This document shows positions 41,020 to 48,607 of a DNA stretch of 64,000 nt, piece after piece (positions within the stretch are counted from its first letter, which is position 1; each line of letters starts with the position of its first letter). Source of the stretch: a phage. The notes under the pieces were generated by a model. The model searched no databases and was not told the origin of the DNA. It was given only the letters and a program-made list of their open reading frames with translations. A program made the position numbers and the translations under genes. The stretch is taken from the sequence record PZ583738.1. One strand, given 5' to 3'.

Positions 41020-41273
41020 TATTCATCGTCCTCATCTTCATCGTCGTCGCCTTCGTCAGCGTCATCAGATTCTTTTTTGTCTTTCTTTTCTGCTTTACCG
41101 TCGTCTTCATCTTCATCATCTTTAGGCTCTTCGCCTTCAATCATGATGGAACGTGCAATTTCAATCTTACGTTCTTCAATCAAACTACCGCATACTGGGC
41201 CAATGTTTTCAGCAAAATATTTGCGAACGGCTACGAGGTCGTTTGATTTAATGGCTTCAAATAAATCATCCAT
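41019..41273 (-). CDS. 67: prohead core protein gp67
   Basis: 84 aa with highly acidic tail ([33 protein letters not shown]); position. Confidence 0.75.
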
Positions 41274-42847
41274 TAGAAATCCTCTTCTTCTTCTTCAGGG
41301 TTTTGGAAACGAGCCTCTTTGGACTCCAATTCAATTTGCTTAGCTTCTTGATTAATTTCTTCATCAGACATCTGGAGGAAATCCTTCATAGCCGTTTGAT
41401 GCGAAATATATTTACCGATAAACGGTTCAGCCATCGTTAGCATATTGATTCTGCGTTCCATGATTTCTGCATCTTTCATTTCAGTGAAATAGCTATCACG
41501 GTTGAACGTAACTTTAATATTATTTAGTTCCTTTTCCCATTCCTCTTCTGAAATAATTTTTTTCAGGATAAGGTTGGTTTTAAGTGGGTCGAGGAAAACT
41601 TCTTCAAATTTATTCTGTAGCTGTCGAATCCATTTAGAGAAATTCAATTCATCGCGAGTAATTGTCGCGCCCGCATCAAACATAACACCACTGTTTTGGT
41701 CATTAGGGATACGAGATAATGGAATTCGGAGCGCCTGATATAGGTTGTTCTTAAACCAGCGAACATCGTCCATATCCGACATGCCTTGTGCACCCGGGAG
41801 TGTATCAACTTCAGTGACTGCTTTACCATCACGACGTTGCAACCAATAGTCTTCTGTCATTGACATGTTGTGCTGTTGGTTTTTGATTTTACCCGTAGTT
41901 GCATCATATACGACACGGTTTTTCATCGTGTTCATAATATGTTGCATGTGTGCTGCTGCTTTACGGGACGGCATATTCCCGGTATCGATATAAAAGACTC
42001 GGCGGTCTGGGGCACGAGTTATACGATAAATGACTAAAGCATCTTCTAATAGTTTTAATTGGTTTGCAGGTTTAATTGCTCGTTGCAAGTATCCGATGAT
42101 ATTCTTGCCACAACAATCGAGTAATCCAGAATGCGCATATACAATCGCCGCACGAGGAATTTTTATTTTAGTACCTGCTTCATATATACGACCATCGGCA
42201 CAATAACTTTCATGGCCAGTATCGTATACAAAATATTCTCTGTAACCGTCGACAATTTTTGTACCGTTTTCCATGCGTGTAACGATTTCACGGATGAACT
42301 GGATTTGTCTTGGGTCAAGGCGACGAAGTTCTTGAACTCCATCTTTAAGTTTTGATGGGTTGATAATTTTGTGGAAGAAAATTCGAGAATCCACATACCA
42401 ACGTTTAAAGTGGTCAGAACCTTTGCGCTCGAAATTAAGGAGGTTATTGACTTCCGAGAATTCTTCGAGGATTCGGTCTTTAATTTTCTGACTAAATTCG
42501 GTAGCATCAAGGTTAAGAGCTACAACATCTTTACCGTCTTCAAAAACGATAGCATCAGACACAATTTCTTGCACTGCGTTATCAACTTCATAATTATTTA
42601 GTAAGTTGCGGTAGGTGTCAATTAATTCCCTGGTATTTTTTACTTCAGGTTCATTGCTCCCGAACATCTGTTGCATCAATGCATTATACGGGACGTTTTG
42701 TTCTTGTGACTCAATTTCACGAGCCCCATCATCAAACTTCGGCCCGGTCATTGACTCTAAATTATTTTTTTCTTGTTGCTTATATTCTTGTTCATCTTCT
42801 TTAGCCCAAGGCTTAAGAAAATTTAGTATTGTGTTAAAACCTGCCAT
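41273..42847 (-). CDS. 20: portal vertex protein gp20
   Basis: 524 aa; extensive identity to T4 gp20 ([60 protein letters not shown]). Confidence 0.97.
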
Positions 42848-42895
42848 TAGAGTCTCCGAAGTTTGGGAAATGAGGCCGAAGCCTCATAATAACTT

Positions 42896-42903
42896 TATTT
42901 ATA
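42896..42903 (-). promoter_or_regulatory. late promoter TATAAATA for gene 20, followed by 5'-proximal hairpin
   Basis: Exact octamer on minus strand; GAGGC-CGAA-GCCTC hairpin at ~42872-42886 lies between promoter and RBS. Confidence 0.65.
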
Positions 42904-42904
42904 C

Positions 42905-43396
42905 TTATTCCCACCAGTCAATTGCGAACGTTGTTTCAAACGTCTCAATCTCATTATTGGAGTCCCAATCCATCTGGACTTCCCCAACGTTGGTTGGCCA
43001 CATGCCGGTAATAACAACTTCTTTCGTAATGGTCTTGCCATCACGATGGAACTGGCGGACAGTAGCGGTTTTCTTATAATCAGCAGGAGCTGCACCAGTG
43101 ATTTCGTTAGTCATACCGTGACACAGGTTTTGCCAATCAACAATTGCTTGACGAACTTTATGAGCATCGTCGTTATAAATCGTAATAGTCCAGTCATCAA
43201 ATGTACGGTCACCCGCCACGTTGATTTTACGGTTCATGTAACCGACCGGAACTTTTTCTACAATGCCTGCTGGCATCGGGGCTGCTTTACAATGGAAAGC
43301 AAAGTTTTTACCCAGGAATGGGATTTCGACTTCGAACAGGTTAGGGCGAGCAAAGTCCCCTGACTCGAAGGCCCTGGTGATATCAGTAAGTTCCAT
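42905..43396 (-). CDS. 19: tail tube protein gp19
   Basis: 163 aa; TRAFESGDFARPNLF.VEI...MNRKINVAGDRTFDDWT matches T4 gp19. Confidence 0.96.
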   Translation of the reverse strand: MELTDITRAFESGDFARPNLFEVEIPFLGKNFAFHCKAAPMPAGIVEKVPVGYMNRKINVAGDRTFDDWTITIYNDDAHKVRQAIVDWQNLCHGMTNEITGAAPADYKKTATVRQFHRDGKTITKEVVITGMWPTNVGEVQMDWDSNNEIETFETTFAIDWWE

Positions 43397-43399
43397 AAG

Positions 43400-44083
43400 T
43401 TATTGTTTCCTATGATAATTTTCTATAAATTCTTGTAAATCACGTAAAGATATACTATTATTTATATCCTTCGAACGATTCAATTCCCACGGAATCATTT
43501 CAAGATTTTCAATGTGTCCAATGATTTCGGGGTCGATATTATTGTCAAATCCATACTTGATGGAAACCTTGTGGTCTAATTGATATGCACCTTCAATTCC
43601 AGCTCTTCCGGTCTTTTCAAAATTTGGGAGATTTTGCACTTCAGATTTAAAATTTAATGCGGTGAATTGACGAACTGCATATGCATATCGTTTGAATTCT
43701 CTTAATCTTGGATTATATCGTCCGTTTAATTCCCCTCGAGTATTTATATTGGGAATACCCTTTTTGGATTTGGAGATTTTTACGCCTTTAGATTTTCGAA
43801 TTTTTAGTCCATCTGGTGTGTTCCAAAATTCTTTACGCAAATCCGAATAAATTTCCCATCTATGGCTTTTGCAGAATTGGATATTGATGTTATTTATTTT
43901 ATCTCGTGTAACTGTATATTCAGCTCCACATTCATCACATTTACAATCAACTTTGACTCGGCATCCCAAATGTTCAATGTTGATTAAATGTGTTGTTCCT
44001 ACTGAAACATCATAACCTTGCTCACGCAAATTTGTCACATTTCTATTAGTTACATTAACGAGTTGTTTATCACTTACTATCAT
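43400..44083 (-). CDS. freestanding HNH endonuclease with N-terminal Zn-ribbon, inserted between genes 18 and 19
   Basis: C-terminal HNH core (YQLDHKVSIKYGFDNNIDPEIIGHIENLEMIPWELNRSK); CxxC...CxxH cysteines in N-terminal half; TATAAATA late promoter ~115 nt upstream. Confidence 0.8.
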   Translation of the reverse strand: MIVSDKQLVNVTNRNVTNLREQGYDVSVGTTHLINIEHLGCRVKVDCKCDECGAEYTVTRDKINNINIQFCKSHRWEIYSDLRKEFWNTPDGLKIRKSKGVKISKSKKGIPNINTRGELNGRYNPRLREFKRYAYAVRQFTALNFKSEVQNLPNFEKTGRAGIEGAYQLDHKVSIKYGFDNNIDPEIIGHIENLEMIPWELNRSKDINNSISLRDLQEFIENYHRKQ

Positions 44084-44192
44084 AGTAGCCTCAAATCGCG
44101 CACCAGAGCGATTCTGGGACGATTTTATCCGTGTTATGTATAAACACCTTACTTAAAGGTTGCGTGCTCTATAATCGTTTATAGGAGCTTTA

Positions 44193-44218
44193 TGCTTTTA
44201 TTTATAACACGGTATAAT
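44193..44218 (+). promoter_or_regulatory. middle-promoter-like element (TGCTTTT box, 13-nt spacer, TATAAT, GGGTCTAAT extension) antisense to gene 18
   Basis: Same motif family as 11263, 28880, 34640; no plus-strand gene downstream. Confidence 0.4.
44199..44206 (-). promoter_or_regulatory. late promoter TATAAATA for the HNH gene at 43400..44083
   Basis: Exact octamer on minus strand ~115 nt upstream of the HNH ATG. Confidence 0.5.
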
Positions 44219-44291
44219 GGGTCTAATCTATTCCGTTAAGCAATTACACTCAACCATAATAGGTAAGAGGGGACTTTCATCCCCTAATTTA

Positions 44292-46271
44292 TTATTGTGG
44301 CCCAATCAGCTCATCGAAATTAGCACCGGTGCTTGTTGCTACGAAATTAAGCGTGATGTAGTTGATGCTGCGCGCCGGTTTGAAATAAATGCTGGCAACA
44401 AACTCATTTCGGTCTATGACCGACGGGGTGTTGTTGGTAGTATCACAAACCACACGACCTTCATAAATGCCACCGAGCGCACGAATACCATCCAAGTATT
44501 GAGAAGTTTCCATACGGAATGATGCACGAGTGAAGTTATCGTTAAGCTCAAACAGTTTATATTTGGATGCGTCACCGATATTTTTCTTCAGCATATTCGT
44601 AAGACGGCGAACGTTGATATGGTCCATCGGAGATGGAACTTTAGTTGCAGTCTTATCACCATACAGAACAAAACCATCACCACCTGCGAAACCAACAACC
44701 GGGTTGATAGCTTCCTGATACATGCGGTCACGTTGGGTCTGACGTGGTTCAACAGCCAATTTCAGAACGTTCAGAATCTGACCGCGGTTATAACCTGCCG
44801 GAGACATCCAAGGCTGAGAAACATCATCAGTACGAGCACACAGACCAGCCATATCAGCTGCCAGAGGAACCCAACGGTTAACGTCGTTATATTTATCATA
44901 CTGATATTTATAGTTGCCATCAATCGCTGCATAAGTCGTGCTGATATTCATGTTATCAGTATCAAATGCACCAGCACCTGTACGCCAGTCAATCAGGTTA
45001 TCCACTGCACGGGTCAGAGGAACGTTAACCAACAGACCTTTCGGCGGGGAAATGAATGCCAAGCAATCCTGACGTTCGTCAGCAATAGAAACTACGTGCT
45101 TCTGAACAGTGGAAGCGGTCGCATCACCTTCACCAGCACAAGCACCAGCGATAAGTAGGTTGATATGCAGAGCTTCACGGTCAGCGAACAGGTCCCAACC
45201 TTGCATCAAATCACCAGCGGTAATCTTATCGTTTGCAGAAATACCACCAGACAGATTGATGATACCACTGAAGCCTACAGGCCAGTTGCGAGATGTTGCA
45301 TAGATGTAGTTGGAAGTACCTTTTGCAAAGTAGTCATCCAGGTAAATGTTATTACCATAAACATCTTTTTCGCCCTGCTTAGTAGACAAAACAACGTTTT
45401 CGACGATTGCACCATCGCGGCGAACGATAATTGCATATTGGTTTTCGGTCTGAGGACCATAGTTAAACACTGCACGAGCTATAGAAGCGCGGGAACCACC
45501 ACCGGGGAAAATATCCAGATTTGCAGTTGCGCCTTTTTCAAATTCAGCTTTGGATACGATTTCAACTTCAAGAGTCGAACCAATTTCACCAGGATAAAGA
45601 GCAACAACACCCGGCATTACATATTTTGCCAATGATGCCTGGAATTCCAGAGAAGTAATTGCTTCTTCACTGTTTTCTGCTTCAGTCAACAGAATGCCAG
45701 AATCGGTAACAATTTTTCCGACAGTGATGGTACCAGATACACCGGAAGAAGTGGTCGTAACTTCTGCAGTCCATGCACTGCCCAAATTAGGATACTGATT
45801 AATAGTTTTAGCAAATGCAATAATCTTATTGGTAGGAATAAAGATTGCCAGAATTTTACCATCAACATCGACCTTGGTCACACGGCCAGCTGGTTCAACA
45901 ACAGTCTGGTTGTGTTTAACCTGAATAACATCACCGACAGCATAGTTTGTACCAGCAGTTACGATGGTAGTTTCAATATTGCCAGCAATAGGGGATGCGT
46001 TTTTAGCTTCGTCACGGTTAACAACACGTACAGTACGGAGGTCATTACCATATTGCAGGAAGTTCATCCCACTCATAAAGTAATCTGCTGTTTCATTATT
46101 CGGACCACCAAACAAATCAACAAGTTCAACTTCGTTTGTAATCTGAGTTACCTGGAAAGCTGGGCCCCACTGGAATTTACCAACCAGCGCCGCACGACCC
46201 GTCGCGTTACGAACAACAGTGCTTTGGACCGTTGTTTCTTTGAGCTCAATGCCCGGAGATAATAAAGCCAT
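44292..46271 (-). CDS. 18: tail sheath protein gp18
   Basis: 659 aa; colinear with T4 gp18 (MALLSPGIELKETTVQSTVV..., NVRRL.NMLK.NIG, NYITLNFVATSTGA). Confidence 0.98.
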   Translation of the reverse strand: MALLSPGIELKETTVQSTVVRNATGRAALVGKFQWGPAFQVTQITNEVELVDLFGGPNNETADYFMSGMNFLQYGNDLRTVRVVNRDEAKNASPIAGNIETTIVTAGTNYAVGDVIQVKHNQTVVEPAGRVTKVDVDGKILAIFIPTNKIIAFAKTINQYPNLGSAWTAEVTTTSSGVSGTITVGKIVTDSGILLTEAENSEEAITSLEFQASLAKYVMPGVVALYPGEIGSTLEVEIVSKAEFEKGATANLDIFPGGGSRASIARAVFNYGPQTENQYAIIVRRDGAIVENVVLSTKQGEKDVYGNNIYLDDYFAKGTSNYIYATSRNWPVGFSGIINLSGGISANDKITAGDLMQGWDLFADREALHINLLIAGACAGEGDATASTVQKHVVSIADERQDCLAFISPPKGLLVNVPLTRAVDNLIDWRTGAGAFDTDNMNISTTYAAIDGNYKYQYDKYNDVNRWVPLAADMAGLCARTDDVSQPWMSPAGYNRGQILNVLKLAVEPRQTQRDRMYQEAINPVVGFAGGDGFVLYGDKTATKVPSPMDHINVRRLTNMLKKNIGDASKYKLFELNDNFTRASFRMETSQYLDGIRALGGIYEGRVVCDTTNNTPSVIDRNEFVASIYFKPARSINYITLNFVATSTGANFDELIGPQ

Positions 46272-46299: not shown

Positions 46300-48607
<2,308 letters not shown>

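Follow-up and report, generated by a model that had tools for sequence, protein, structure and literature searches.

A candidate free-standing homing endonuclease gene of the T6 ORF19.1 family between the tail sheath and tail tube genes of a T4-like phage

Optional nuclease genes of T4-like phages

T4-like phages harbor nuclease genes that are not part of the shared genome and whose products act on conserved genes nearby. One such candidate, a 227-amino acid (aa) open reading frame (ORF), lies between gene 18 (tail sheath) and gene 19 (tail tube) of a phage of the genus Gaprivervirus (record PZ583738.1; the 64,000 nucleotides [nt] that were analyzed are termed the window). By mechanism, its closest analogues are the free-standing Mob, Seg, and Hef endonucleases of T4 and its relatives, together with the zinc-finger HNH enzyme I-TevIII (PMC2988022, PMC1865063, PMC2993671). 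SegF and SegG of T4, as well as SegH and Hef of T4 relatives, are encoded by free-standing genes and cut a nearby conserved gene in phages that do not carry the nuclease gene. During this intronless homing by Seg and Hef enzymes, flanking markers are co-converted (PMC2993671, PMC2988022). The T4 mob genes, including those for MobA and MobE, are likewise optional intergenic nuclease genes of T-even phages that target a neighboring conserved gene, and in the T-even phage RB3, I-TevIII joins an HNH nuclease to zinc fingers that bind DNA (PMC1865063).

Despite these parallels, the window ORF is distinct from each of the described enzymes. Seg proteins belong to the GIY-YIG class and Hef is a unique endonuclease (PMC2993671, PMC2988022), unlike the window ORF. 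Mob proteins have an N-terminal HNH domain followed by C-terminal NUMOD-type modules; in the window ORF this order is reversed, and similarity to Mob proteins is not detectable. I-TevIII, in turn, is intron-encoded, with HNH_3 at its N-terminus (residues 4-48) and zinc fingers at its C-terminus, and hhalign finds no similarity between it and the window ORF. Moreover, cleavage and co-conversion have been demonstrated for Seg and Hef, whereas for the window ORF both are suggested by sequence polymorphism alone.

The ORF instead belongs to the family of T6 ORF19.1, for which a literature search found no paper or experimental work. A 2010 census lists one unnamed "other HNH" gene in T6, which may or may not be ORF19.1 (PMC2993671). 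Thus, the kind of element is well known in T4-like phages, but the ORF19.1 family itself is uncharacterized, and it bears unusually clear traces of movement. We put the probability that the ORF is a free-standing homing endonuclease gene of this family, with a predicted cleavage activity and a predicted target site, at roughly 0.78.

The gene 18-19 junction and its empty counterparts

The genes of this region lie on the minus strand. Over positions 42800-44800, the closest record is vB_EcoM_VR26 (hereafter VR26; 92.7% identity); many Gapriverviruses have flanking genes 95-97% identical to those of the window. The initial annotation of the window, made from its letters alone, had described a 227-aa ORF 3 nt upstream of gene 19 and a 208-nt intergenic region, and the ORF list confirms these coordinates exactly. 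The parts of the junction, in the direction of transcription, are as follows:

44292-46271, minus strand: gene 18 (tail sheath), 659 aa, the upstream flank (ORF list, annotated homologues)
44084-44291: spacer between gene 18 and the ORF, 208 nt
44225-44291, minus strand: two hairpins 3ʹ of gene 18, the first with a GAAA loop at 44268-44285; a terminator-like site (RNA fold)
44190-44225, minus strand: late-promoter block, 36 nt, containing TATAAATA (44199-44206) and kept in empty-site relatives
44089-44092, minus strand: GAGG Shine-Dalgarno sequence of the endonuclease ORF, 5 nt upstream of its ATG (direct reading of the sequence)
43400-44083, minus strand: putative free-standing homing endonuclease ORF, 227 aa, ATG start, TAA stop (ORF list)
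43862-43945, minus strand: zinc-ribbon-like cysteine cluster in the N-terminal half of the ORF, C47, C49, C52...C71, H74 (conservation)
43403-43750, minus strand: C-terminal domain, residues 112-227, the family-defining putative nuclease domain (profile search, AlphaFold2 [AF2] model)
43469-43576, minus strand: HNH-like (beta-beta-alpha-metal) core, D170 to K205, including H171, N193, and N202
43459-43466, minus strand: second TATAAATA, within the ORF over codons D-I-N, at -70 relative to the gene 19 ATG
43406-43411, minus strand: AGGAAA Shine-Dalgarno sequence of gene 19, built from ORF codons R225 and K226
43397-43399: gap of 3 nt between the ORF stop codon and the gene 19 ATG
42905-43396, minus strand: gene 19 (tail tube), 163 aa, the downstream flank and presumed target gene (ORF list, annotations)
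43352-43396, minus strand: first 45 nt of gene 19, with an ORF-linked synonymous block

Among 33 closely related Gaprivervirus records, the gene 18-19 spacer exists in three states. It is empty and 205 nt long in about 24 of the 33 (SP18, P479, CJ20, VR20, VR25, and others), holds an ORF of the window type in VR26 only, and holds a different 201-aa ORF, 36% identical to that of the window, in VR7, DK-13, RZ, and TH57 (the VR7 type). Dhakavirus is polymorphic as well: IME540 and vB_EcoM_005 have a window-type ORF, and the region is ~683 nt shorter, approximately the length of the ORF, in JS98, WG01, and many others. Comparison of the 18-19 junction across relatives, which the initial annotation had proposed, therefore reveals sporadic presence between flanks that are 95-97% identical, with exact breakpoints. 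Relative to the empty site, the gene 18 stop codon is exactly where homology ends, to begin again at the CTT(A)ATG of gene 19. Only the 36-nt promoter block is retained in between, which indicates that the spacer was replaced rather than simply interrupted. Consequently, the earlier view of the locus as a mobile-element insertion into the late structural operon gains from the polymorphism, the breakpoints, the synonymous block in gene 19, and purifying selection on the ORF (both described below), but a simple insertion it is not.

The VR7-type ORF and T6 ORF19.1 represent a second form of the same family at the same 18-19 locus, likewise with a zinc ribbon and a C-terminal DH...N...N domain. 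Proteins of this T6/VR7 type are only 33-36% identical to the window ORF, are ~201 aa long, and often begin with GTG. The two forms also differ in position, as the T6/VR7 type adjoins gene 18, upstream of the native gene 19 promoters, whereas the 227-aa window type abuts gene 19. The VR7-type insertion of Gaprivervirus is clean: directly behind the gene 18 stop codon and upstream of the promoter block, 678 nt stand in place of 18 nt.

Two further phages illustrate the variety at this site. Enterobacter phage vB-EclM_KMB20 (Karamvirus; L012:1207-2608) has a 199-aa ORF by gene 18 and a 230-aa ORF overlapping the gene 19 start, in tandem; with both types in one spacer, the types are not mutually exclusive. 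Escherichia phage Bp7 (L031:536-1207) encodes a chimeric 223-aa family member, the N-terminal half of which is of the window type and the C-terminal half different, and which ends 37 nt before gene 19.

Possible sequence exchange in the flanking genes

The start of gene 19 differs from the rest of the gene in its similarity to relatives. Over nt 1-45, the window is 75.6% identical to eight sampled genomes lacking a window-type ORF (four with the empty site and four of the VR7 type), whereas over nt 46-492 it is 99.6% identical to DK-13 and 94.6-97.5% identical to other Gapriverviruses. Compared with Dhakavirus IME540, identity is 93.3% over nt 1-45 and 82.8% over the remainder. All differences within nt 1-45 are synonymous and fall in codons 2, 3, 7-9, and 11-13. 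ORF carriers have GAA-CTT...AGR-GCC-TTC and noncarriers GAG-TTG...CGY-GCK-TTY, and the same codon contrast separates the carrier IME540 from the noncarriers JS98 and WG01 in Dhakavirus. Within Gaprivervirus, the empty-site phages P479, VR20, and VR25 have GAG-TTG...CGC-GCT-TTC, and SP18, although its site is empty, has GAA-CTT...AGA-GCC-TTC. As far as sequence comparison can tell, this block looks like a co-conversion tract from a foreign donor, a cleavage-resistant variant of the target, or both. The gene 19 haplotype of Bp7 is a hybrid, GAG-TTG followed by AGG-GCC-TTC.

An ORF-linked haplotype was not found on the gene 18 side, where the window matches P479 and VR26 matches VR7. The last 100 nt of gene 18 (44292-44391) are only 75% identical between the window and VR26, as opposed to 93-99.5% farther upstream, which marks this end as a mosaic hot spot. 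At least three strongly diverged haplotypes exist here (up to 25% over 100 nt, mostly synonymous), and they are independent of spacer state: VR26, with its window-type ORF, has its gene 18 3ʹ haplotype in common with VR7, which has a VR7-type ORF.

Between the window and VR26, the spacer is identical at 199 of 208 positions. The ratio of nonsynonymous to synonymous divergence (dN/dS) of the ORF between the same two phages is 0.15 (0.18 for the N-terminal half and 0.13 for the C-terminal half) at a synonymous divergence (dS) of 0.42. Judged by these ratios, the ORF is under purifying selection.

Family membership and the N-terminal half

The ORF is a member of the T6 ORF19.1 family (PHROG 5104). 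It matches the phrog_5104 profile over residues 1-227 with E = 5.2e-71 and T6 ORF19.1 itself over residues 23-218 with E = 1e-23 and 34% identity (tblastn), and a full-length copy that is 96% identical exists elsewhere (P0001). The family is broad, comprising 244 phage records and ~4,900 protein clusters (50% identity); a search with the C-terminal domain retrieved 4866 cluster representatives at E <= 1e-3. The common unit of these relatives is the C-terminal ~115 residues. Elsewhere, this domain is fused to other N-terminal modules, namely DUF7487, a DUF4379 treble-clef zinc finger, several helix-turn-helix (HTH) domains, and NUMOD3. Partner modules such as NUMOD3, HTH, and treble-clef domains point to the modular build typical of phage homing endonucleases.

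The cysteine cluster that the initial annotation noted in the N-terminal half is borne out by conservation: all family members have C49, C52, and C71, with either H or C at position 74. Zinc-finger and zinc-ribbon profiles match the cluster only weakly, and the AF2 model of this region has a pLDDT of ~90. The cluster is presumed to be the zinc-ribbon-like, DNA-binding part of the protein and would bind zinc.

Although widespread, the family is missed by curated HNH profiles, and its annotations are inconsistent. Homologues are variously named "putative head morphogenesis protein," "type II restriction endonuclease," "homing endonuclease," or "hypothetical protein" (NC_054907.1 of T6, PQ657822.1 of Roth78, NC_020416.1 of S16, and PQ181262.1). 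An apparent pseudogene in Salmonella phage S16, considered as evidence of decay, was rejected as such: the ORF is intact, with 206 aa and a GTG start, and the annotated coding sequence (321 nt) is too short.

A probable divergent HNH-type domain

With its "DH...N...N" motif, the C-terminal domain very probably represents a divergent nuclease of the HNH (beta-beta-alpha-metal) type, a predicted enzyme and a candidate member of the HNH group. Across 150 diverse relatives, D170 and H171 never vary, and conservation is at least 90% at N193, N202, and K205; in a 52-sequence alignment of the C-terminal domain, D170, H171, N193, and N202 are all invariant. The AF2 model of the domain (pLDDT 95.5, pTM 0.84) places the DH pair at the end of a strand and the N...N pair on the next strand and helix. 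Its best, though weak, fold matches are the HNH domain of Cas9 (HNH_4) and the HNH nickases Gme HNH (4h9d) and GVE2 HNH (5h0o).

The D-H...N...N-R-x-K motif appears to stand in the same register in the Cas9 HNH domain. When aligned by hhalign to a fragment alignment of HNH_4 (PF13395), the C-terminal domain matches in catalytic register with an 8-residue insertion (P = 9.5e-4, probability 22%), pairing YQLDH with YDVDH, ENL with DNK, and NRSK with NRGK. The residues of SpCas9 that correspond to the motif are, we presume, D839/H840, N854, and N863. Among the 52 C-terminal domains, the commonest subthreshold Pfam matches are HNH (3/52) and HNH_4 (3/52), followed by GH-E (2) and HNH_5 (1), with a best E value of 0.0076. 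The assignment to HNH thus draws on the invariant motif, on weak matches of fold, and on profile-profile similarity that is marginal. In the initial annotation, the ORF was credited with a C-terminal HNH core. The motif D170-H171...N193...N202...K205 is indeed present, but HNH profile searches fail, an outcome that the same annotation had named as speaking against its claim.

Kinship of the domain to the Mob and I-TevIII HNH families of T-even phages was considered and rejected, given the lack of hhalign similarity and the reversed domain order; the reference Mob and I-TevIII proteins do match HNH_3, HNH, and NUMOD1 in the profile search. A search of PADLOC defense models gave no significant match, the only one listed being PDC-M47B at E = 0.035.

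Promoters, hairpins, and ribosome-binding sites

Matches to the octamer TATAAATA, the consensus of T4 late promoters, number 19 in the window, where 4.2 would be expected. None of 100 shuffles reached 19, and 17 of the 19 matches are on the coding (minus) strand. One of them, at 44199-44206, lies upstream of the ORF, as does a TATAAATA in each window-type copy (window, VR26, IME540, and CBH8). The initial annotation had taken this minus-strand site as a sign of late expression of the endonuclease; the motif stands, but it is probably not specific to the endonuclease. The surrounding 36-nt block is the sole portion of the spacer common to empty-site relatives, is identical to SP18 at 33 of 36 positions, and is present in VR7 too. 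This late promoter probably served gene 19 ancestrally and now drives the ORF and gene 19 jointly. Conservation of the block (44190-44225) extends beyond the promoter octamer, in genomes both with and without the ORF. Within it, ATTATAC lies 8 nt upstream of TATAAATA, and its reverse complement accounts for the plus-strand promoter-like motif of the initial annotation, a lone TATAAT (44213-44218) that has no -35 element, fails a sigma-70 scan, and is at chance level.

Downstream, the ORF supplies signals for gene 19. The 3ʹ junction ATAGGAAACAMTAACTTATG is kept in all window-type copies (window, VR26, IME540, and CBH8), which span three genera. Here, the R-K codons of the ORF form the gene 19 Shine-Dalgarno sequence, which explains the conserved C-terminus of the protein, (D/H)RK(Q/H). 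Additionally, the TATAAATA inside the ORF is restricted to the Gaprivervirus copies (window and VR26). In SP18, with its empty site, the proximal TATAAATA of gene 19 is at -60, near the -70 position of the ORF-internal one, which may act as a possible secondary late promoter for gene 19.

The initial annotation had also noted several short inverted repeats between gene 18 and the ORF. Most are at chance level, but the 76 nt that follow the gene 18 stop codon (44225-44300) form two hairpins (-22 kcal/mol, z = -3.4) that none of 200 shuffles matched in stability. These hairpins probably represent a transcript 3ʹ end or an mRNA-stabilizing structure. Their sequence (44225-44291) is confined to the spacer version of the window and VR26, and analogous hairpins follow gene 18 in T6, IME540, CBH8, and Mokit. 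A consensus terminator scan found one site against 1.0 expected, and an Rfam search of the spacer gave no known RNA family. The leader (44050-44195) folds no better than shuffled sequence (z = -1.0), so that a hairpin hiding the ribosome-binding site of the ORF, as in mobE and I-TevI, is unsupported.

Promoter placement differs in IME540 (L006) and CBH8 (L007), where TATAAATA ends 5-6 nt before the ATG of the ORF and no Shine-Dalgarno sequence is visible. Transcripts from this promoter would barely translate the endonuclease yet would still translate gene 19, an arrangement that may serve to hold nuclease levels low.

Proposed mechanism

According to the homing model, the N-terminal half of the protein (a small beta domain, the zinc ribbon, and a basic helix) would bind DNA, and the C-terminal HNH-type domain would nick or cut it. 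The mobile cassette would begin at the gene 18 stop codon and extend slightly into gene 19, comprising the hairpins, the TATAAATA promoter, the ORF, and a replacement gene 19 ribosome-binding site. Insertion would be harmless to tail-tube expression because the cassette carries a promoter and, in the last codons of the ORF, the gene 19 ribosome-binding site. Transcripts from the late promoter, along with read-through from gene 18, are predicted to yield the protein late in infection. In a cell infected by two phages, the protein would attack the empty 18-19 junction of a co-infecting relative, with the likeliest cut in or beside gene 19 codons 2-10 (the first ~30 nt). Through recombination-dependent repair, the cut genome would then acquire the cassette along with a few dozen flanking nucleotides.

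Among T4-like phages, of which many serve in phage therapy, mosaicism and mutual exclusion are shaped by free-standing homing endonucleases. This locus offers a testable target, the first ~30 nt of the tail-tube gene, for which the putative sensitive and resistant alleles found in nature differ by synonymous changes only. It also shows how an element may occupy an essential late operon harmlessly, by means of its own promoter and a downstream ribosome-binding site embedded in its last codons.

Fidelity to the sheath-tube junction

Family members occupy the sheath-tube junction well beyond Gaprivervirus, including in Tequatro-, Dhaka-, Winkler-, Gelderland-, Karam-, and Hadassahvirus and in Klebsiella, Shewanella, and Aeromonas phages; examples are T6, IME540, CBH8, Roth78, S16, Mokit, KMB20, Shewanella phage Thanatos-2, and Aeromonas phage AS-zj. 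Of seven metagenomic contigs sampled, a set biased to close relatives of the query profile, five have the family member between sheath and tube genes and two have it elsewhere. The sheath-tube metagenomic members include phages with a different gene order as well as members with a DUF7487 N-terminus. Such site fidelity is consistent with homing endonucleases of one lineage following a target gene that is very conserved.

A more far-reaching, and unlikely, proposal is that the ORF19.1-type nuclease is a lineage fixed at the sheath-tube junction both in Straboviridae and in metagenomic myoviruses unrelated to them, that swaps its DNA-binding half (zinc ribbon versus DUF7487) and has a function tied to the locus. 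Were this true, a candidate function would be that of a weapon cutting the tail-tube gene of competitors, with the synonymous recoding of gene 19 codons 2-10 as the immunity determinant, and the C-terminal domain would define a large unrecognized branch of HNH-like nucleases (~4,900 clusters at 50% identity).

Weighing the alternatives

Several observations speak against a homing endonuclease. Pfam and NCBIfam searches with the ORF and its relatives gave no significant match to a curated HNH profile, hidden Markov model searches of PDB sequences with full-length and C-terminal domain profiles returned only chance matches to zinc-finger, leucine-rich-repeat, and capsid proteins, and Foldseek found no match in the PDB. 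Comparison by hhalign with single sequences of RB3 I-TevIII and MobE likewise gave no meaningful similarity, and the literature search found no cleavage or homing data for any member of the ORF19.1 family. Linkage between the ORF and the carrier haplotype of gene 19 is not strict, as SP18 has this haplotype at an empty site; SP18 may have lost the ORF precisely or may have a naturally resistant allele. Furthermore, the ORF copies of the window and VR26 diverge more (dS 0.42) than the flanking genes, from which it follows that they are not recent copies of each other and that no very recent transfer is documented. Lastly, the constant sheath-tube location in very distant phages could reflect old vertical inheritance and repeated loss.

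This last point leads to the alternative that survives best, although we consider it improbable: the ORF may be a resident accessory nuclease, an old, vertically inherited gene of the late tail module that was lost in many lineages and is not a homing element. Its role might be to cut the genomes of competitor phages (exclusion) or to act in sheath or tube expression. Occupancy of the same junction in very distant myoviruses, including those with non-T4 gene order and a different N-terminal domain, would be expected of such a gene and forms its main support, and the clear purifying selection (dN/dS 0.15) and the greater divergence of the two Gaprivervirus copies relative to their flanks agree with it. 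Vertical inheritance with loss does not, however, sit well with a sporadic distribution at 95-97% identical flanks with exact breakpoints, nor with two distinct family members inserted at different points of the same spacer. Moreover, nt 1-45 of gene 19 match another genus better than their own, a match that calls for the ORF and its flank to have moved laterally as one, and the partner domains of the family are typical of homing endonucleases. Exclusion as such would not decide the matter in favor of a resident gene, since exclusion can coexist with homing in T-even phages (PMC2993671).

More doubtful still is a decaying or inactive remnant of a homing endonuclease, in the late stage of the homing cycle, that has lost the ability to cut DNA. 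A nuclease motif too divergent for curated HNH models, the lack of a documented recent transfer, and the resemblance of SP18 to a site at which the ORF was lost or resistance arose are what one would expect of such a remnant. However, the ORF is full length, its family-invariant residues (D170, H171, N193, N202, K205, C49, C52, and C71) are intact, dN/dS is low in both halves (0.18 and 0.13), and a 96%-identical full-length copy persists elsewhere (P0001).

A virion, morphogenetic, or packaging protein, such as the terminase-assisting HNH proteins of some cos phages, is very improbable even though the large terminase gene is two genes upstream of the ORF in the late structural operon and the T6 homologue of the ORF has the RefSeq name "putative head morphogenesis protein," since that name was carried over from another automated annotation, no structural-protein family matches the ORF, most close relatives build the same virions without it, and T4-type terminases have a nuclease of their own (T4 gp17).

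Neighboring genes and other putative nuclease genes of the tail cluster

Beyond the junction, the operon is bounded by the following genes:

46304-48136, minus strand: gene 17 (large terminase) (ORF list)
41273-42847, minus strand: gene 20 (portal)

In the window, genes 19 and 20 are 57 nt apart (42848-42904). Two of the phages mentioned above, IME540 (L006:2681-3262) and KMB20 (L012:3104-3685), have an extra 193-aa ORF between these genes, with weak matches to SegE_GIY-YIG and NUMOD3; this ORF, which has no counterpart in the window, probably adds a second homing endonuclease gene, a seg-like one, to the tail cluster. Crowding of this kind reaches further in the metagenomic contig SRR20217175_2380409 (L022, 3208-6528), where three endonuclease-like ORFs occupy the sheath-tube region: a PHROG 314 "homing endonuclease" and a DUF7487 member of the ORF19.1 family (P0014) lie between the sheath and tube genes, and an ORF matching PHROG 314 and NUMOD3 follows the tube gene.

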